Notes under the pieces: model-generated
The model's database searches: none
What the model was told of the DNA's origin: nothing
What the model saw: the letters and a program-made list of their open reading frames with translations, nothing else
Shown: positions 5,678-62,195 of the stretch, piece by piece
How the letters are laid out: every line of letters starts with the position of its first letter
How positions within the stretch are numbered: position 1 is the stretch's first letter
Translations under genes and position numbers: made by a program
NCBI GenBank assembly: GCA_964402965.1
Contig: CAYODY010000001.1
Coordinates: forward strand, 72,002-136,001
Direction of reading: 5' to 3'
DNA from: an uncultured Candidatus Saccharibacteria bacterium
GTDB taxonomy: Bacteria; Patescibacteriota; Doudnabacteria; UBA920
Length of the DNA stretch: 64,000 nucleotides

Positions 5678-6412
5678 CTATTTTACAAGATTGGTTGGTT
5701 CAACATCTTTGAGTGCGATTCGGCGTACAAGTTCCCAAACTTTCGTGTGAACTTGTTGCGGGGTTAGCAAAACACCATTTTCTACACACTCAATCAGACG
5801 TGTGTTGGGAAATAGTTCAGCAATTTCGAGGTATACCGCTTCAGCACGTTTGAGATGTTCTGGATCGTTTTCGTGAATATCGCGCTTACGATTTTCAGAT
5901 ACTGATCGTTTTTCGATCAATTCCAAAGTCATTTCCATTGGAATGTGCAAAATGATGTTTAGATCAGGCTTCGGAATATTGAAAGTTCCAAATTCCAAAT
6001 TGTCTAACCATTTGTAGAACTTGATGCGTTCATCTCGATTGACAATTTTACCACCCTGATGACCTGCGTTGGAAGTGACGTATCTGTTTGTAATTACAGT
6101 CTTGCCACTCTGAAGCATCTCGCGAAGTTTAAAACTCGCGTCGAATCTATCTACCGCATAAAATATAGAAGCAGCTTCGGCATTCAGGTTTCCAAAATCT
6201 CCAGCAAGATACTTCTCCAACATCGCTGCGGAAGGTTGTCCGTACTGTGGAAAATCAAACATCGAAAAATCGTACCCAGAAACCTCGAGTGTCTTAGCCA
6301 ATAGGTCTGTTTGAGTTTTTTTCCCACTACCATCAGTACCATCAAGAACGATGAACTTGCCTGGTTGTGAAACCTTCTCCTTGTTGGATTTTCCGAAAAG
6401 TCTTTTTATCAT
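5678..6412 (-). CDS. tmk: thymidylate (dTMP) kinase
   Basis: P-loop FIVLDGTDGSGKKTQ is typical of Tmk. 244 aa. Confidence 0.8.
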   Translation of the reverse strand: MIKRLFGKSNKEKVSQPGKFIVLDGTDGSGKKTQTDLLAKTLEVSGYDFSMFDFPQYGQPSAAMLEKYLAGDFGNLNAEAASIFYAVDRFDASFKLREMLQSGKTVITNRYVTSNAGHQGGKIVNRDERIKFYKWLDNLEFGTFNIPKPDLNIILHIPMEMTLELIEKRSVSENRKRDIHENDPEHLKRAEAVYLEIAELFPNTRLIECVENGVLLTPQQVHTKVWELVRRIALKDVEPTNLVK

Positions 6413-9819: not shown

Positions 9820-11973
<2,154 letters not shown>

Positions 11974-20373: not shown

Positions 20374-21429
20374 TTATTCAATTAAATTTTTAGATTCTTC
20401 CGCAGCAAATTCAGTAACCTCTACTTGCTCCATTTGTAAGGTAGCAGCATTTTTAATGTTACTTTGTAGTTTAGTAAAATCGTTAGCAACAGTACCCATT
20501 GTATTGGCAGAATTCTTAATATGATTAGCAAGAATTCCTAAGTTTCGGCCGAATTTATCGGATTCTTGTTGGATTCCAGAAACCATATGCAAAAGCTTTT
20601 CAGCAACTTCGTTAACTTGCTGACCACGTAAGGCTATTAAAATAATTTGTAAATGATGGTATAAAGTGTTTGGGCTCACCATGTAGACTTTTTTGTTGCG
20701 GGCGTATTCAACTGTTGCCATGTCTTCTAAAGCTTCATGGAAAACTCCCTCGCTTGGAATGTACATTAGTGCAAAATCAAAAGTTCCTTCTTGAGTAAGG
20801 ATGTATTTTTTGTGAATTTCATCAATTCGCTTGCGAATATCACGTAAAAAAGCTTTTTTCAAATTTTCTGCAGAATCTTCCTCTTTCGCTTCTTTGTACA
20901 AACGAAAATTTTCCATGGAGAATTTGCTATCTATAGAAAGAATTTTGTCTCCTACGAAAACAGCCATGTCTACAATTTCACCGTTGCTAAATTTATACTG
21001 GGCTTTGTATGAATTTTTATTTAGCACTTGGGAAAGCATGTTCTCTAGCATTTCTTCACCAAAGTTTCCGCGTGCTTTTGGCGAGGCCAGAACTTCGGAC
21101 AAACGACGAATGTCTGGACCAATTTGCGACATTTCTCCAAGTCTTCCTTGTAGCGCACCAATTACTTTTGCGGCATTATCAAGGCGCTCGTTGATGTCTT
21201 TATTAGTCGCAGAAATAGACTTTTCCATAGCATCTTTTGTGGCTTCTGTACCGGTTTTGATATCGCGCATCCATTCCATCATTACTTTCATATTAGTGTC
21301 GTCAACTGGTTTCTCGGCCGACTTTTTGAGCGTCGAAAGCATATACAAAAGAACGCCGAATCCGGCCACAAGTAAAGCTATGATGATATATAAAAATGTT
21401 GTCATATGGTTAATTATAGCAGAGGGCAC
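20374..21429 (-). CDS. rmuC: DNA recombination protein RmuC
   Basis: N-terminal TM, a long coiled coil, and a C-terminal RmuC domain (GNFGEEMLENMLSQVL, SIDSKFSMENF). 351 aa. Confidence 0.7.
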   Translation of the reverse strand: MPSAIINHMTTFLYIIIALLVAGFGVLLYMLSTLKKSAEKPVDDTNMKVMMEWMRDIKTGTEATKDAMEKSISATNKDINERLDNAAKVIGALQGRLGEMSQIGPDIRRLSEVLASPKARGNFGEEMLENMLSQVLNKNSYKAQYKFSNGEIVDMAVFVGDKILSIDSKFSMENFRLYKEAKEEDSAENLKKAFLRDIRKRIDEIHKKYILTQEGTFDFALMYIPSEGVFHEALEDMATVEYARNKKVYMVSPNTLYHHLQIILIALRGQQVNEVAEKLLHMVSGIQQESDKFGRNLGILANHIKNSANTMGTVANDFTKLQSNIKNAATLQMEQVEVTEFAAEESKNLIE

Positions 21430-21469
21430 ATAAACCAGCTACTGAATCTATTTAATGCCTCTTAAACCC

Positions 21470-21498
21470 AAAACACGCCCCTCTAGAAGGCGTGTTTT
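21470..21498. terminator. bidirectional terminator-like hairpin flanking the R-M module (left side)
   Basis: AAAACACGCC-cctctagaa-GGCGTGTTTT, a perfect 10-bp stem. Its core ctctagaagg is shared with the hairpin at 23643-23672. Confidence 0.65.
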
Positions 21499-21592
21499 CG
21501 GAACTTTGTTAAGTTATATCAGCTTTAACAGCTGTATTAATTATATCAGGCTATTAGGCACGCGCAAGGGCTTGGGCTGTGGATATTCTCGT

Positions 21593-22612
21593 TTATTTTC
21601 CCAATTTTTTTAATGTGCCAAGAGTCAATAAACTAGCAGGATATATTGTGCTAATTTTTTGCATGTATTCTTTGGAATTATAGATTTCATCACTAACAAA
21701 TGTTATAACGCCGTAATTGGCAATTGATTTTGCCTTTTCTTCGGTTAAATCTAAACCAAGTGTTATTTGAATCATAACGTCAATTTTACTCATCTGAACA
21801 GTTTTTATAAATTGTTTATACCTCTCTCTTAGAGTTCTTTTGGCACCAATTCCGTATACTTTATTCTTTATTTTAAAGAAAAAGTCAAATTCTGTTGAAC
21901 TGTCTGCTTTGTCATGAGTTTTTGATATGTCATTTGCTTTTATCCCCAAACTAATAAGGATATTATATATTCTGTCTTCATAATTTGAACCTGCATCGGA
22001 TAGAATCGATTGATTGATACTTTCTGAAAACATTAACATAAACATCTGATTTGGTTCCAATCCTTTAGTTTTTAGGAATCTATAATCATGAAATAGAGAA
22101 TTAACATATTCTTTAGTTGATTGAGAAATGAAACTTGTATCTTTATCTTCAAGCTTTGAAAAAAACAATAGAGAGAGTAAAGCGCCATTAACTCTAGTGT
22201 AATATGGTTTGCTTTTTGAAATCGTGTCGTATTCGACTGAAAGTTGATTTACATTTTGAAGTGAGGATAAGTTAGATATATCTCCAACTTTGGCTTCAGC
22301 GAGCAGTAAAGGTTTAATTTGAATTAATTTAAGTGAGAAAACAAAAGTGATTAAATCAGTAGTATTTTTAACTTGATACATCATGGCAGTAAGCCCTACT
22401 TTTTTAGTTTCTGAAAGCTGGTCTATTAAATTAATAAATATTGCTTTAATTTGATTGAGTGATAGTTTGGAGTTAGAAAAGTATGCTTCCAAGAATTTAT
22501 TGATTTCATTATCCGATAATTTAATAGCACCATTAAGCTCCTTTAAGAAAAAATATAGATTAAAGTTAGCATCAAGCTTATTCCTTTTAATTTTGACCTT
22601 ATTTATTTTCAT
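21593..22612 (-). CDS. candidate type II restriction endonuclease (unassigned family) cognate to the adjacent m5C methyltransferase
   Basis: 339-aa ORF with no recognisable housekeeping motif. Its start overlaps the methyltransferase stop by 14 nt (translational coupling). The call rests on genomic context only. Confidence 0.4.
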   Translation of the reverse strand: MKINKVKIKRNKLDANFNLYFFLKELNGAIKLSDNEINKFLEAYFSNSKLSLNQIKAIFINLIDQLSETKKVGLTAMMYQVKNTTDLITFVFSLKLIQIKPLLLAEAKVGDISNLSSLQNVNQLSVEYDTISKSKPYYTRVNGALLSLLFFSKLEDKDTSFISQSTKEYVNSLFHDYRFLKTKGLEPNQMFMLMFSESINQSILSDAGSNYEDRIYNILISLGIKANDISKTHDKADSSTEFDFFFKIKNKVYGIGAKRTLRERYKQFIKTVQMSKIDVMIQITLGLDLTEEKAKSIANYGVITFVSDEIYNSKEYMQKISTIYPASLLTLGTLKKLGK

Positions 22613-23603
22613 GTTTTTGCAAGGTATTAATAATCTGTTTTGCTAATGTTTTGATTACAGGCACTGCAACGCTGTTACCGAATTGTTTATACATTTGATT
22701 ATCGCTATTTGGCAAAACAAAAGAATCTGGAAACCCTTGGAGTCTTGCAGCCTCTCTAGGTGTTAATTTACGAGGGTTTTTATTTTTTTGTTCAATTAAA
22801 ATTTCAGATCCGTCTTTGTAATATCTTGCTGATATTGTACTGGTATACTTGGATTTTCTGTTAAACAAAGAATAGCCAAAACCATTACCTTTTTCTCTAT
22901 GTTCTTTTTTTCTTCTTTGGTGTCCTGCCCATAATTTATCAGAAATTGTATACTTAGGATCAATTTTCTTTTCAAGAATATCTCCTAATTTTGTTGCAGG
23001 TTTTGGTTCATCTGGAAAAGTAAATTCTATATTCCCTTTAAAAGCAACAATGTAAATTCTAACTCGATTTTGAGGCAAACCAAAATCTTTAGCATTATAT
23101 AATCTATGATAAACTTTATAACCCATATCCTCTAGGGTAGAAATAATCACTTTTAAGGTATTCCCTTTGTCGTGGCTTGCTAAATTCCTAACATTTTCTA
23201 AAAATACAACCTTTGGTTTATGGTGTTTAACTATTCTCGCTATATCAAAAAATAAGGTTCCGCGAGTATCTTCAAAGCCTTTTTTTAGACCTGCTTGAGA
23301 AAATGGCTGACATGGAAAGCCTGCTAATAACATATCGAAATTTGGAATTTCTTCTGGAGATATTTTTGTGATATCTCCGTATGGCAATTCGCCGAAGTTT
23401 GCAAGGTATGTCTTTTTCGCTGCCTCGTCCCACTCTGAAGTAAATACGCATTCACCGCCAGCATTTTCAAAACCCATGCGTATCCCTCCGATTCCTGCAA
23501 ACAAATCGATAAAAGTAAATTTAGCAGATTTAATTTTGTTAATAGGTTTAGTAAATAAGTCCCTAATTATAACTTTGCGTTTTAGAACGGTAGTATTTTG
23601 CAT
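22599..23603 (-). CDS. DNA (cytosine-5)-methyltransferase, M.HhaI-like family
   Basis: All C5-MTase motifs are present: I FIDLFAGIGGIRMGF, IV GFPCQPFSQAG, VI VVFLENVRNL, VIII QNRVRIYIVAF, X YKQFGNSVAVPV. The conserved blocks closely parallel M.HhaI; the target-recognition domain differs. 334 aa. Confidence 0.9.
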   Translation of the reverse strand: MQNTTVLKRKVIIRDLFTKPINKIKSAKFTFIDLFAGIGGIRMGFENAGGECVFTSEWDEAAKKTYLANFGELPYGDITKISPEEIPNFDMLLAGFPCQPFSQAGLKKGFEDTRGTLFFDIARIVKHHKPKVVFLENVRNLASHDKGNTLKVIISTLEDMGYKVYHRLYNAKDFGLPQNRVRIYIVAFKGNIEFTFPDEPKPATKLGDILEKKIDPKYTISDKLWAGHQRRKKEHREKGNGFGYSLFNRKSKYTSTISARYYKDGSEILIEQKNKNPRKLTPREAARLQGFPDSFVLPNSDNQMYKQFGNSVAVPVIKTLAKQIINTLQKHENK

Positions 23604-23642
23604 GTATAAATTATAGCATTAGAGCGATAAAGTTTATAGAAA

Positions 23643-23672
23643 AAAACAACCCTCTCTAGAAGGATTGTTTTT
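23643..23672. terminator. bidirectional terminator-like hairpin flanking the R-M module (right side, next to tRNA-Asp)
   Basis: AAAAACAAcCCT-ctctaga-AGGaTTGTTTTT, a 9-bp stem with one mismatch. It shares the ctctagaagg core with the hairpin at 21470-21498. Confidence 0.55.
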
Positions 23673-23681
23673 ATATATACG

Positions 23682-23758
23682 TGGCGGACTGAACGGGACT
23701 CGAACCCGCGACCTCTCGCGTGACAGGCGAGCGCTCTAACCAACTGAGCTACCAGTCC
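23682..23758 (-). tRNA. tRNA-Asp (GUC), CCA encoded
   Basis: The reverse complement folds as a cloverleaf: GGACTGG acceptor, anticodon loop CTGTCAC (GTC), T-loop TTCGAGT, 3' end GCCA. Confidence 0.85.
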
Positions 23759-23828: not shown

Positions 23829-23904
23829 TGGTACCGACGACAGGGATTGAACCTGTGACCTAAGGCTTATGAGTCCTTCGCTCTACCAACTGAGCTACGT
23901 CGGC
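23829..23904 (-). tRNA. tRNA-Met (CAU) elongator (tRNA-Ile2 with lysidine not excluded), CCA encoded
   Basis: The reverse complement GCCGACGTAGCTCAGTTGGTAGAGCGAAGGACTCATAAGCCTTAGGTCACAGGTTCAATCCCTGTCGTCGGTACCA folds as a cloverleaf, apart from an A31:G39 mismatch at the base of the anticodon stem. The anticodon is CAT. The C11:G24 pair indicates an elongator type. Confidence 0.8.
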
Positions 23905-24042
23905 TTATTACCCTACTGCGCTACAATTAGACTTGCAATAATTACTCTTGCGCTGTTGCGAATTTTATTGATGCGGCTTATGCTTCTGCATAATTTTTTT
24001 GGTTGCGGGGCCGGGATTCGAACCCGGAACCTCAAGGTTATG

Positions 24043-24694
24043 CATACCACTATAGCTTTCGCTACTCTATCGAAATCGATTCGAAATAGATTTGATGGTC
24101 TGGACTTTCTCTTCATCCATCTATATAATGGATGCCTACCATTAAGTCTCTACACCTTCCTGAAAATCTTCAGGCTTGGCTCGGGATTGCCATCTAACAG
24201 GGTTCCCCGAATTTGATAGGATTCACATCTAAATTACTTTAGATGCAGCCCATAGTGAGATAAGTTCAAAGTTTTCTCGGTAATCAGCTGACTTTGGTTT
24301 ACGTTGACGTTTGTCAGTTTCAACTAAGGTAAGCGTGCTACCAAAACTTATAAATATTTCTACTGGAAAAACGTAAAAAATTCGTTTTTCAGGGATGTAT
24401 ACAATAGCGAAGTCAAAATCTTGTTTATTGTACAAACTTCTTATCATAAATCTGCGATTAGTCTTAGTGCGTCTAACATCAACACAATAGTTTTGATCAG
24501 AAGTGTTAAACCAAGCAGATTTTACTTGAAGTTTTACAAGCTTTCCATTTATATCAACTATTAGATCGTAGGAATGTCTGTCGCCCACAGGCTTCGAAAC
24601 TCCCCATCCAAACTCTAATAGTTTTAGAATAGTGGCTTGTTCAGCTACATCGCCTTTTAGTTTAGTATCCATATAAAGAACTTTCTCGAGATTG
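24043..24694 (-). mobile_element. group I self-splicing intron (~652 nt) carrying a homing-endonuclease-like ORF
   Basis: Reading the minus strand downstream of the ORF shows the group I core elements. P is AAATTCGGGGAACC, Q is GCAATCCCGAGCCAAGCC, R is GTGTAGAGACTTAATGG and S is AGAAAGTCCAGACC. A P6 hairpin (CCTGAAGATTTTCAGG) and a P8 hairpin (CATCCATtatatagATGGATG) are present. The 5' exon ends in U and the intron ends in G, consistent with CU|...G|CAUAA splicing. Confidence 0.75.
24229..24672 (-). CDS. intron-encoded PD-(D/E)xK-fold endonuclease (putative homing endonuclease, cf. I-Ssp6803I of the cyanobacterial tRNA-fMet intron)
   Basis: 147 aa. GDVAEQATILKLLEFGWGV...DRHSYDLIVDINGKLVKLQVKS fits a helix-E / D / (Q)xK restriction-fold core. 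It lies entirely inside the intron, 22 nt after the 5' splice site. Confidence 0.6.
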   Translation of the reverse strand: MDTKLKGDVAEQATILKLLEFGWGVSKPVGDRHSYDLIVDINGKLVKLQVKSAWFNTSDQNYCVDVRRTKTNRRFMIRSLYNKQDFDFAIVYIPEKRIFYVFPVEIFISFGSTLTLVETDKRQRKPKSADYRENFELISLWAASKVI

Positions 24695-24879
24695 AGCCTT
24701 GCGAGCTGCCAATTGCTCTACCCCGCGTCAATATATATACCAAAAGGTACTTGGAGATTATATCACTATTACTAGGATTTGGCAAGGTTTTAGGTAAAAT
24801 TTATCATAAATTTAGTCAAGTAAAACAAAACCGCCCCTTGCGGAACGGTTTCGTCGATTGCTTCGAAGCAATTATCGAA

Positions 24880-25056
24880 TTAACGACGACGCTTCTTAGC
24901 AGCTGGCTTACGCTTTGCAGCTGGCTTACGCTTTGCTACTTTACGCTTAGCTGGCTTTTTAGCGGCAGCTTTTTTAGCTGGACGCTTTGCTACTTTACGC
25001 TTTGCAGCTTTTTTAGCTGGTGCGCGCTTTGCAGCTTTTCGCTTTTTTACGGCCAT
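24880..25056 (-). CDS. small Lys/Ala-rich basic protein (histone H1-like / HU-unrelated nucleoid-associated candidate), 58 aa
   Basis: Minus-strand ORF translates as MAVKKRKAAKRAPAKKAAKRKVAKRPAKKAAAKKPAKRKVAKRKPAAKRKPAAKKRRR. It is missing from the ORF track, probably because it is under 60 aa. GGAGA SD 10 nt upstream; TAA stop at 24880-24882. Confidence 0.6.
   Translation of the reverse strand: MAVKKRKAAKRAPAKKAAKRKVAKRPAKKAAAKKPAKRKVAKRKPAAKRKPAAKKRRR
24890..25050. repeat. tandem/imperfect direct repeats underlying the Lys/Ala-rich ORF
   Basis: Perfect 18-bp tandem duplication agctggcttacgctttgc at 24901-24918 and 24919-24936. The 20-mer cgctttgctactttacgctt occurs at 24929-24948 and 24983-25002. 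ttttttagctgg occurs at 24970-24981 and 25009-25020. Confidence 0.8.
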
Positions 25057-61469: not shown

Positions 61470-62168
61470 CTATTTATACAAATATAATAGCCAAAAATTT
61501 CGTTTATATGACTTTCCTTGGAATTGAGTGTGGCTAGATTTGCGTTCTATGTGTTTAATTTTAAAGTCAGAATAAAGATTTTGAATGTCTTCTTTTGTGA
61601 AAACTCGTTCTACAATTCTAGTTTCGGGCATGATGTAAGTATCTTTTTCGTTCATTGGAAACTTTTCTAGTAAGTTCTGAGCGTTTTTGTCTCCATCTTT
61701 ACACAGTGCTTTAACAAACATGTACCCACCTGGTTTTAAAACTCTGTTAACTTCCTTTATATACGCAGTTCTCTCGGCTTCAGTTAATGAGTTTGAAGAG
61801 ACTACATCAATAATAATATCGAATTCACTATCTCTAAGCGGAAAATCTTCACCTATACTATGCCTTAAGAATGTACACATTACACCAGCTTCATTTGCGC
61901 GTCCTTCAGCTAGTGCAATCGCTGTTTCTGAAATTTCCATGCCAGTGACCTCGCAACCACGTTCAGCTAAAAAAATTGAATTCTTTCCTGTACCAGATCC
62001 TAAATCCAAAACCCTCAACCCTTCGAGTTCAAGTTTTGCTGTTTTACGAAGCCACTTAATAAAATGTTTAAAATCTAACTGGGGCTCATTAGAATTACTA
62101 ATCAGTTTTGGGTTGCGATATTCTTTTTCCCAGACGTCTGTTTGAGGCATGTGTTTATAAACGAACAA
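61470..62168 (-). CDS. class I SAM-dependent methyltransferase
   Basis: Motif I VLDLGSGTGKNSIFLAERGCEVTGMEIS. 232 aa. Confidence 0.75.
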   Translation of the reverse strand: MFVYKHMPQTDVWEKEYRNPKLISNSNEPQLDFKHFIKWLRKTAKLELEGLRVLDLGSGTGKNSIFLAERGCEVTGMEISETAIALAEGRANEAGVMCTFLRHSIGEDFPLRDSEFDIIIDVVSSNSLTEAERTAYIKEVNRVLKPGGYMFVKALCKDGDKNAQNLLEKFPMNEKDTYIMPETRIVERVFTKEDIQNLYSDFKIKHIERKSSHTQFQGKSYKRNFWLLYLYK

Positions 62169-62195
62169 CCCCGATTTCTCGGGATTGTTTTTAAT

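Follow-up and report, generated by a model that had tools for sequence, protein, structure and literature searches.

The genome of an uncultured Candidatus Saccharibacteria bacterium carries a restriction-modification (R-M) gene pair between two similar hairpins, one of which lies next to tRNA-Asp, and this raises the question of whether the hairpins are scars of the insertion of the R-M genes, members of a dispersed repeat family, or structures that were already in place when the genes arrived. In the 64-kb stretch of DNA analysed here (the window), a repeat search identified a 29-nt direct repeat, 24/29 identical, at 21470–21498 and 23643–23671 (2173 nt apart), bracketing a C5-methyltransferase gene (M) and a gene for a CCGG-family restriction endonuclease (R). 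The initial annotation, which had described related hairpins with a common 10-mer around the R-M genes, is confirmed on this point. The left copy (21470–21498) reads AAAACACGCC-CCTCTAGAA-GGCGTGTTTT, and the 10-mer common to both copies, CTCTAGAAGG, occurs at only two places on both strands of the 64 kb. Two occurrences against 0.05 expected, a count reached in 0 of 100 shuffles, bear out the view that such sharing is unlikely to arise by chance; one-mismatch matches at 10214 and 11852 are coding sequence and form no hairpins. The right hairpin adjoins tRNA-Asp as had been described, ending 9 nt from the 3' end of the tRNA. The hairpins had also been thought to enclose exactly the two R-M genes; both genes do lie between them, but so do a predicted promoter and the body of a predicted small RNA (21499–21588). 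The features of the locus are the following.

20374–21405, minus strand: RmuC, the downstream anchor gene, 343 aa from the ATG at 21405 (PF02646)
21413–21421, minus strand: predicted RmuC promoter, TGCTATAAT
21463–21539, minus strand: predicted small RNA of about 70–77 nt, with a 5' stem-loop, an A/U-rich second stem-loop and terminator hairpin B
21470–21498, minus strand: hairpin B, AAAACACGCCUU-CUAGA-GGGGCGUGUUUU, from folding and covariation
21540–21588, minus strand: predicted small-RNA promoter block, with a AATATCCACAG core at 21578–21586, a -35 box (TTGCGC) at 21562–21567 and an extended -10 box (TGATATAAT) at 21540–21548
21589–23641, no strand assigned: inserted segment of about 2.05 kb, made up of M and R with the promoter of M, bounded by the points at which homology to R-M-free relatives stops and resumes
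21593–22612, minus strand: R, type II restriction endonuclease with a predicted fold of the CCGG/CCNGG family, 339 aa, overlapping M by 14 nt
22599–23603, minus strand: M, C5 cytosine DNA methyltransferase, 334 aa (PF00145, E 4e-113; TIGR00675)
23610–23618, minus strand: putative extended -10 promoter (TGCTATAAT) for M and R, read from the sequence, 6 nt ahead of the ATG
23642–23672, minus strand: hairpin A, AAAAACAAUCCUU-CUAGA-GAGGGUUGUUUUU, then more U, from folding, a hairpin scan and a partial match (28 bits) to the small-RNA model
23682–23758, minus strand: tRNA-Asp (GUC), last gene of the tRNA operon (ARAGORN and Rfam)
23829–23904, minus strand: tRNA-Met (CAU) (ARAGORN and Rfam)

Every gene from 16 to 28 kb is on the minus strand, and both hairpins fold better on this strand (–14.6 kcal/mol, z –4.6, for hairpin A; –20.8 kcal/mol, z –3.9, for hairpin B) than on the plus strand. 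G-U pairs on the minus strand extend both stems to 12–13 bp, closed by a 5-nt CUAGA loop, and this is the strand considered relevant here. On this transcribed strand, each hairpin is a stable G+C-rich stem-loop directly before a U-tract (U4–U7), as in a Rho-independent terminator, and hairpin A was also recovered by a consensus terminator scan. Both occupy the 3' ends of minus-strand units: A follows tRNA-Asp, and B follows the small-RNA body and lies downstream of R. Hairpin A is, thus, probably the intrinsic terminator of a tRNA-fMet/tRNA-Met/tRNA-Asp operon, and hairpin B probably terminates the small RNA and would serve, by read-through, as the sole terminator downstream of the M-R operon. 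The locus resembles known Rho-independent terminators (including those of tRNA operons with paired A- and U-tracts) in having G+C-rich stem-loops and U-tracts at the ends of co-oriented units, with stems upheld by compensatory change; it differs from them in a near-invariant U-CUAGA-G loop (20/21 hairpins) and in a conserved CC...GG clamp that pairs outside the A/U tracts of hairpin B. If transcribed, this clamp would bury the U-tract, which is unusual for a simple terminator.

The helices of the hairpins have been kept across species. In an alignment of 20 hairpins, 95.8% of cells were paired and compensatory (double) changes were found in 8 of 13 pairs, the number of double-change cells being 40, compared with 10.3 for shuffles, and 0/500 shuffles reached this level; the signal collapsed in slid controls. 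The loop and its closing pair, U-CUAGA-G, are invariant in all but one of the 21 hairpins seen (13–15 organisms, two paralogous positions), the exception being hairpin A of L098, with UCUAG, and at least eight other species keep this loop at both positions. Hairpin A of the window is identical to that of L013 at 28/31 positions and hairpin B is identical to that of L096 at 29/31, whereas A and B of the window are identical to each other at only 24/31. Judged by these identities, each hairpin is nearer to its orthologues than to its partner, and A and B are probably old paralogues, the stems of which drifted with compensatory changes while U-CUAGA-G remained fixed.

The comparison set consisted of ten other Candidatus Saccharibacteria loci spanning tRNA-Asp (or a remnant of it) to RmuC. 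Both hairpins are present in eight of these ten loci and the R-M genes in none. The order in L013 is tRNA-Asp, hairpin A, 19 nt, promoter, small RNA, hairpin B and RmuC, so that the slot after hairpin A (slot 1) is empty, and the slot between the hairpins is likewise empty in L098. Six relatives in all, including L012, L014, L095, L096 and L097, keep both hairpins around unrelated cargo. Orthologues of A lie about 6–10 nt after tRNA-Asp in L013, L014, L095, L096, L097 and L098. Slot 1 and the slot after hairpin B (slot 2) hold different, mostly unrelated genes according to species. The slot-1 cargo proteins of different species showed no homology to each other by BLASTP, a faint resemblance between those of L012 and L097 being visible by eye only, and replacement of a conserved gene is therefore not claimed. 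A same-species strain without the R-M genes was not found, with RmuC homologues jumping from 100% to 89% identity; because the nearest R-M-free relative stands at 89%, other species are the basis for inferring the precise sequence before insertion.

The R-M segment is a foreign, lineage-specific insertion. Alignment to L012, L013, L014 and L015 set its boundaries: homology to these relatives stops at the U-tract of hairpin A and resumes at AATATCCACAG, 6 nt past the R stop codon, where the small-RNA promoter block starts. The GC content of the insert (0.308) is below that of all 620 sliding 2,053-nt windows of the 64 kb, and no homologue of M or R was found in 81 related loci (L010–L090). The best solved relative of M is M.HhaI (E 9e-77). 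The assignment of R to the restriction-endonuclease fold comes from a fold search, the CCGG/CCNGG family being the best match of the predicted fold; R has an invariant R-E-R triplet (residues 262–264) and a long helical N-terminal half, and sequence searches against solved structures, whether started from R alone or from a profile of 30 sequences, produced nothing but spurious leucine-rich-repeat matches. The system is, thus, like the CCGG/CCNGG type II systems (Ecl18kI, PspGI, EcoRII, AgeI, NgoMIV) in the predicted fold of R and in its C5 methyltransferase partner, and one relative of the pair is linked to a Vsr gene; it differs in that R has no sequence-level match to any solved enzyme and in the helical N-terminal half. 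Of all 4-nt palindromes in the window, CCGG is the most depleted, at 0.66 of the Markov expectation, which is an indirect hint only as to the specificity of the system. The M-R operon, with its promoter so close to the ATG, would be leaderless. Adjacent M-R pairs with the same 14-nt overlap are also found in L091–L094 (M 77–82% and R 75–79% identical in amino-acid sequence), in contexts unrelated to this one; the nearest pairs sit in phage-like, toxin-antitoxin and integrase/Vsr contexts. Neither CTCTAGAAG nor CTTCTAGAG occurs in L091–L094, and there are no CUAGA hairpins beside the nearest M-R modules.

Hairpin B is part of a predicted small-RNA gene. A covariance model matched the window copy with 82.5 bits (E 7e-14), its sole full-length match in the window with filters off, and in 16 related loci it gave one full-length match each, plus one partial match. 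Folding of the orthologues one at a time again gives three stems, the 5' stem-loop differing in sequence between them; RNAalifold did not call this stem-loop. The promoter block could be aligned and is conserved in up to 13 relatives, which retain AATATCCACAG, the -35 box and TGnTATAAT, with hairpin B following 70–77 nt further on. No Rfam family was matched at E<=10 over 21380–21620 (small RNA and hairpin B), nor was either hairpin or the small RNA matched at gathering thresholds in the scan of the whole window, and a literature search for such a small RNA or terminator in Saccharibacteria found nothing. These results suggest that the unit ending in hairpin B is a conserved, previously uncatalogued and independently promoted small transcription unit of about 75 nt, just upstream of RmuC. 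A DnaA-box cluster or oriC was considered for the conserved ATATCCACA and rejected: only one site looks like a box, the counts match those expected from shuffles and the skew does not switch, leaving a resemblance only. The RmuC protein itself is found, in exact form, on 10 public contigs, with orthologues in all related loci; an exact-protein look-up from the GTG start returned nothing, the ATG at 21405 being the start on record.

Together, these data favour, with a probability of about 0.8, a reading in which the two hairpins, as Rho-independent terminators, were already in place and had been passed down vertically, and the M-R module was acquired later, into slot 1. The conserved locus would consist of the tRNA-fMet/Met/Asp operon, slot 1, the small-RNA gene, slot 2 and RmuC, with hairpin A stopping transcription of the tRNA operon 9 nt past tRNA-Asp. 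A 2.05-kb M-R module with its own extended -10 promoter would have been acquired horizontally in the lineage of the window and would have come to lie in slot 1, with the U-tract of hairpin A directly on one side and the small-RNA promoter directly on the other. The module appears to have brought no terminator, so its transcript would be expected to continue across the small-RNA gene and to end at hairpin B. Insertion probably took place by recombination, possibly via the conserved flanks, into an intergenic slot that is permissive and insulated by terminators. Since both hairpins are also present in relatives without the R-M genes, they appear to mark a hotspot of gene swapping rather than the scars of an insertion.

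The most obvious alternative is that insertion of the R-M genes beside tRNA-Asp left the hairpins behind, as att-like direct repeats or as a target duplication. The 29-nt repeat does flank the R-M genes with no further copy in the window, a tRNA gene lies next to the site, the insert is foreign in composition, and R-M insertions with long target duplication form a class on record, known from H. pylori, H. influenzae and others (PMC2853133). This explanation is nevertheless very improbable, as the empty loci L013 and L098 hold both copies rather than the single one expected of an empty site, six more relatives hold both around unrelated cargo, and the closest M-R modules elsewhere have no such repeat. 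The window copies also differ at 5/29 positions, each being closer to its orthologues, hairpin B forms part of a conserved small-RNA gene, a scan of the ten neighbouring proteins showed no integrase or recombinase domain, and the 29-nt repeat falls short of the >30-bp criterion for that class (Furuta, Abe & Kobayashi, 2010; PMC2853133). The proposal of an insertion island at a tRNA locus holds in part: there is a foreign, lineage-specific insert beside a tRNA cluster and the content of the locus is variable, but the repeats are not its scars. An equally poor account is given by a generic genome-wide terminator or REP-like family, for which the flanking of R-M genes would be uninformative. Other terminators in the window do have the A-tract/stem/U-tract design, and one at 62164–62189 has the AACAATCC stem of hairpin A, but dispersed copies were found in neither the window, the related DNA, nor the strict-pattern genome and viral-contig scans. 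No other hairpin in the 64 kb has a CUAGA loop or a model score (next best E 0.05, the antisense of hairpin B, filters off). In 0.53–0.59 Mb of related DNA, the tRNA-Asp/RmuC locus is the only place with convincing hairpins of the CUAGA-loop type (a U-tract and a stem of 9 bp or more); the few matches elsewhere are weaker, lie in coding regions and have no model score. A scan of 185,579 genomes, made with a strict pattern (the covariance model was run on the window and related loci), yielded one match per genome in four Saccharibacteria plus one chance match in a coding region, and a pattern scan of viral contigs yielded none. Thus, the earlier view of the hairpins as terminators stands as to their shape on the transcribed strand, whereas their membership of a repeat family does not.

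The hairpins might also be cassette-capture or recombination sites, integron-attC-like or hairpin-targeted, with variable cargo directly 3' of each and the invariant loop recognized by a protein. The variable, mostly unrelated content of both slots is in keeping with this idea, as are the invariance of the UCUAGAG loop (which contains the palindrome TCTAGA) beside varying stems and the recombination and repair functions of the conserved neighbours (RmuC, NYN, PIN and a UvrD-PD-(D/E)XK helicase-nuclease). It is improbable, if somewhat less so than the two preceding explanations, given that no integrase, transposase or HUH enzyme was found among the scanned proteins or the genes of L001–L009 and L095–L098. 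The distal boundary of the cargo is the small-RNA or RmuC promoter, not another hairpin, and G-U pairs on the sense strand only favour an RNA-level over a DNA-level structure. Integron attC sites are 57–141 nt long, contain R''/L''/L'/R' cores and have an IntI integrase in their vicinity, and their cassettes are promoterless and uniformly oriented. The arrangement described here is similar in that hairpins separate variable cargo, but the 31-nt hairpin is far below attC size and has no visible GTTRRRY or other attC-like core, there are only two hairpins and no IntI, M has its own TGCTATAAT, and cargo with its own promoters is found in both orientations (reverse-strand genes in L095 and L090). 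The idea that two unrelated terminators resemble each other by chance gains a little from the A/U tracts and G+C-rich stems common to all terminators, which inflate identity, but it has almost nothing to recommend it, as both occurrences of the 10-mer fall in the loop region of adjacent terminators and the loop is kept at both positions across species.

The inherited terminator pair with a later R-M acquisition can be set against other known systems. Islands adjacent to tRNA genes carry tyrosine integrases and att sites that overlap the 3' end of the tRNA. The locus is like them in its variability and in having foreign DNA beside a tRNA, but it has no integrase, the repeat contains no tRNA sequence and the insertion point lies beyond the terminator. 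It shares with the long-target-duplication class the presence of R-M genes only, with direct repeats and no transposase or integrase, but it differs in that empty sites hold two copies and the repeat is 83% identical and older than the insertion. "Chance insertions between repeated sequences" are another of the three classes of repeat-flanked R-M systems (Furuta, Abe & Kobayashi, 2010; PMC2853133), and the locus is similar to these in that the R-M genes have no mobility gene and the repeats pre-exist in R-M-free genomes, the difference being that the repeats here are orthologously conserved terminators, predicted to be functional. Because sister species repeatedly reuse the slot for other cargo, "chance" is probably better read here as "permissive hotspot".

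The loop deserves separate consideration. To our knowledge, the loops of ordinary terminators are not constrained like U-CUAGA-G, and a plain terminator would not be expected to hold an invariant 7-nt loop across species and paralogous sites; the hairpins may therefore have an additional role beyond termination. CUAG is self-complementary, so the loops could form a loop-loop kissing contact. Tentatively, and with the odds well against it, U-CUAGA-G might be a functional recognition element (for kissing or protein binding) that links a clade-specific, hitherto undescribed Saccharibacteria small RNA to the 3' trailer of the tRNA-Asp operon, the hairpins defining or insulating two adjacent gene-capture slots that repeatedly swap defence and stress genes (R-M, HSP20, exported proteins).

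These results remove a false lead, as R-M genes flanked by repeats beside a tRNA resemble an integration scar, which the pair of hairpins here appears not to be. They expose a conserved, uncatalogued candidate small-RNA gene, with the loop of its predicted terminator and that of the neighbouring tRNA-operon terminator under a sequence constraint not expected of plain terminators. The locus would also provide a clean example, from the ultra-small genomes of Saccharibacteria, of acquired defence genes housed in a terminator-insulated slot that sister species fill otherwise.

The restriction-modification (R-M) module, consisting of a C5 DNA methyltransferase gene (M) and a restriction endonuclease gene (R), is bracketed by two related hairpins next to tRNA-Asp, hairpin A on the side of the tRNA operon and hairpin B on the side of RmuC. 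The initial annotation had described this arrangement, and the sequence, the repeat search and the motif counts agree with it. The two hairpins form a direct repeat of 29 nt (24 of 29 positions identical, spacing 2173 nt), and the 10-mer that they share, CTCTAGAAGG, has only two sites when both strands of the 64-kb window are counted, one in each of these hairpins (0.05 expected; none of 100 shuffles reached two). Allowing one mismatch gives four extra matches in the window, and the two inspected, at 10214 and 11852, lie in coding sequence and form no hairpin. All genes between about 16 and 28 kb are on the minus strand, in the order tRNA operon, M, R, RmuC, NYN, PIN and UvrD/PD-(D/E)XK helicase-nuclease, and hairpin A is separated by 9 nt from tRNA-Asp (23682–23758, minus strand). 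The features of the junction are as follows.

21413–21421, minus strand: extended -10 TGCTATAAT of the putative RmuC promoter, matching the M promoter in design
21463–21539, minus strand: predicted small RNA of about 70–77 nt ending in B (conservation and covariance model)
21470–21498, functional strand minus: left hairpin (B), AAAACACGCC-CCTCTAGAA-GGCGTGTTTT
21540–21548, minus strand: extended -10 TGnTATAAT, conserved in relatives
21562–21567, minus strand: -35-like TTGCRY, conserved in relatives
21578–21586, minus strand: motif AATATCCACAG, agreeing with the DnaA-box consensus TTATCCACA at 8 of 9 positions, a resemblance only
23610–23618, minus strand: extended -10 TGCTATAAT of the putative M promoter, 6 nt before the ATG
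23642–23672, functional strand minus: right hairpin (A)

Folded as minus-strand RNA, B (AAAACACGCCUU-CUAGA-GGGGCGUGUUUU) reaches -20.8 kcal/mol (z -3.9) and A (AAAAACAAUCCUU-CUAGA-GAGGGUUGUUUUUUU) -14.6 kcal/mol (z -4.6); G-U pairs strengthen both hairpins on this strand, and the plus-strand folds are weaker. A U-tract directly follows each hairpin, a predicted combination of stem-loop and U-tract that is typical of intrinsic terminators. The terminator reading, already proposed, gains further support from an alignment of 20 hairpins (seven A, 13 B), in which 95.8% of the cells of a 13-bp helix are paired. Two-sided changes at eight pairs affect 40 cells, versus 10.3 in shuffles, the observed values being reached by none of 500 shuffles, and pairing falls to 50–66% when the partner is slid by one to three columns. 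At one position of the helix, 11 sequences have U-G, six have U-A and two have C-G; as U-G pairs are A-C mismatches on the opposite strand, the aligned sequences argue for selection of the structure on the sense (minus) strand, as RNA. The hairpins do not belong to a generic terminator family scattered over unrelated loci, since the CUAGA-type loop is absent from about 10 other terminator-like hairpins of A-tract/stem/U-tract design in the window and the genome scan described below gave one match per genome. The minus-strand terminator-like hairpin AACAATCCCGA-GAAA-TCGGGGTTGTT (62164–62189) has the AACAATCC/GGGTTGTT stem of A with a different loop, a likeness that may be due to chance.

The distribution of the hairpins among relatives bears directly on their origin. 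When 185,579 species genomes were searched for the pattern ACANNCCNCTCTAGAAGGNNTGT, four Candidatus Saccharibacteria MAGs gave one match each, which places the organism of the window in this group; the only other match, within a Polynucleobacter gene, is due to chance. The four loci (L011–L014) correspond to that of the window, with RmuC proteins 84–87% identical to its own, and all are without M or R; four more relatives (L095–L098; RmuC 86–89% identical) were obtained via a protein index. In L013, tRNA-Asp is followed by A, 19 nt, the promoter and small-RNA body ending in B, and RmuC; this is thus an empty site with both hairpins, and L098 is a second. Elsewhere, the slot between A and the small-RNA promoter (slot 1) holds other cargo: A and B surround a 182-aa ORF in L014 and a 150-aa ORF in L012, and slot 1 contains a reverse-strand 90-aa ORF in L095, a 232-aa ORF in L096 and a 198-aa ORF in L097, with no detectable homology among the cargos of different relatives. 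In L011, B stands alone, immediately before RmuC, and the tRNA cluster is replaced. A tblastn search for M or R in L010–L090 (0.53 Mb, chiefly relatives' RmuC loci) found none.

It had also been proposed that the hairpins could be att-like direct repeats left by insertion of the module, in which case an empty site would be expected to hold a single hairpin. The comparison refutes this: both empty sites hold two (A of L098 having a variant loop), and each copy is closer to its orthologues than to its partner: A of the window matches A of L013 at 28 of 31 positions and B matches B of L096 at 29 of 31, versus just 24 of 31 between A and B of the window. In every case A is found no more than about 10 nt from tRNA-Asp or a CCGCCA remnant, and B comes after the small-RNA body. 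These identities and fixed positions indicate that the pair is older than both the split between these species and the acquisition of the R-M module. B can be traced to relatives with RmuC identities as low as 58% (L061), whereas A is confined to the 84–89% group and is missing from L015, L016 and L011; given this wider range, B looks the older of the two, and A was probably derived from a B-like hairpin.

The other part of the proposal, an insertion island, is supported for the R-M segment itself, which is foreign in GC content, bounded by breaks in homology and absent from relatives. In alignments with L012, L013 and L014, homology spans tRNA-Asp and A, stops at the U-tract of A and picks up again at AATATCCACAG, 6 nt past the R stop codon. 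The inserted segment (about 21589–23641) contains the M promoter, M and R, and nothing else, and its GC content (0.308) is lower than in any of 620 sliding windows of equal size. As it contains no terminator, transcription past R would first meet one at B. Both M and RmuC carry TGCTATAAT 6–7 nt before the ATG and no Shine-Dalgarno sequence, and the RmuC layout recurs in L013 and L015, which suggests that both mRNAs may be leaderless. The closest R homologues are 74–79% identical and their M partners 77–82%, with the 14-nt M/R overlap kept; these nearest relatives of the module are found beside a terminase-like gene with a serine recombinase, beside a ParE/RHH pair or, on a contig that looks archaeal, beside a tyrosine integrase with a Vsr gene. 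CUAGA hairpins are absent from all these loci, and such unrelated settings indicate a mobile module and hairpins that belong to the host locus. Most public same-strain Logan contigs (L001–L006) end within tRNA-Asp, and L003 starts about 20 nt downstream of B; these breaks are compatible with assembly-graph branching at conserved or variable sequence, and say nothing about the presence or absence of the module.

By its predicted products, the slot-1 cargo of the window is a real R-M system. M (334 aa) is a C5 DNA methyltransferase (PF00145, E 4e-113; TIGR00675; best solved relative M.HhaI). R (339 aa) has no above-threshold Pfam match, EcoRII-C being sub-threshold only, and this domain is present in many of its 905 homologues. 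An AlphaFold model of R from 30 homologues has a pLDDT of 82.7, and R262-E263-R264, invariant in the family, appears to resemble the R-(D/E)-R motif with which CCGG-family endonucleases read CC:GG. Among the 4-nt palindromes of the window, CCGG is the one most strongly under-represented (62 observed versus a Markov expectation of 94, ratio 0.66; about 0.71 for CCWGG), which is weak evidence, compatible with the CCGG-family fold of the endonuclease.

Furuta, Abe and Kobayashi (PMC2853133) distinguished three classes of repeat-flanked R-M systems, arising by site-specific recombination, by insertion with long target duplication (one copy at the empty site, repeats of more than 30 bp) or by chance insertion between repeated sequences. 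The module of the window falls outside the first two classes and agrees with the third, with the qualification that its "repeats" are a pair of conserved terminators on either side of a slot that can be reused. The event itself is of an ordinary kind, the insertion of an R-M module into a permissive intergenic slot.

Variability extends beyond slot 1. The slot between B and RmuC, also variable in L018, is empty in the window, L012, L013, L015, L097 and L098, and holds a reverse-strand HSP20 gene in L090 and L095 and genes for small unrelated proteins in L014/L017, L061, L078, L030 and L096. Many distant CPR loci (L022–L077) also have the tRNA-Met/Met/Asp cluster linked to RmuC, at spacings of 56 nt to 4.4 kb and frequently in inverted orientation, which indicates that inversions and insertions have recurred here. 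The cluster is swapped for unrelated DNA in L011 (about 6270–6290), L012 (about 1660–1680) and L018 (about 850–880), exactly at ...TTCGCCGCCA, a mimic of the CCGCCA 3' end of tRNA-Asp, and past the junction L011 has exactly the sequence that follows the intact tRNA-Asp of L015; this suggests that the tRNA 3' end was a breakpoint of rearrangement or integration. The first gene of the tRNA operon (24001–24727, minus strand) is an initiator-type tRNA-Met (5' CGCGGGG..., 3' ...CCCCGCAACCA, anticodon CAU), not called by ARAGORN; a group I intron (about 645 nt; Rfam RF00028, 70 bits, 24080–24267) interrupts its anticodon loop and carries a 147-aa PD-(D/E)XK ORF (PF11645, 24229–24672). In L013, L014, L095, L097 and L098 neither of the two tRNA-Met genes is interrupted, so this intron, like the R-M insert lying 400 nt from it, is specific to the lineage. 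Upstream of the operon, the 24.75–25.07 kb region, with ORFs on both strands, contains imperfect repeats with an 18-nt period (TTTGCAGCTGGCTTACGC..., 24896–25044) and could encode a low-complexity Ala/Lys-rich protein.

The block upstream of B is conserved in up to 13 relatives. Its DnaA-box-like motif, which reads ATATCCACA or, in a number of relatives, TAATCCACA, may be where a regulator binds; a replication origin was rejected, the window having neither a cluster of such boxes nor a skew switch. In single-sequence folds of six orthologues, the predicted small RNA always has a 5' stem-loop of differing sequence (CAGCU, UAGCU, GUCC, GUACU, AAGCA) and the terminator last, with an A/U-rich second stem-loop in the closer relatives; RNAalifold called the terminator alone, plus a conserved CC...GG clamp. 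With filters off, a covariance model built from 12 sequences found one full-length copy in the window (21463–21539, 82.5 bits, E 7e-14) and a partial match at A (28 bits), with no other match better than E 0.05. In 587 kb of related loci, it found one full-length copy at each of 16 loci, plus one partial copy, and none in distant RmuC loci or R-M relatives. The loci with this small transcription unit are the window, L011–L018, L030, L061, L078, L088, L090 and L095–L098. No Rfam family matches the small RNA or the hairpins, and a full-text literature search found no paper on such an RNA; the predicted gene is uncatalogued and limited to a Saccharibacteria sub-clade, with one copy per locus.

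The seven central bases of the terminator, U-CUAGA-G, are identical in all 20 aligned hairpins; A of L098, a further hairpin outside this alignment, carries a UCUAG variant. The loop thus stays fixed at two paralogous terminators while the stems drift. CUAG is self-complementary, so loop–loop contact is possible, and a protein might also recognise the loop or the TCTAGA palindrome. The by-product of this analysis, of moderate interest, is an uncatalogued, clade-specific predicted small-RNA gene with an unusually constrained terminator loop.
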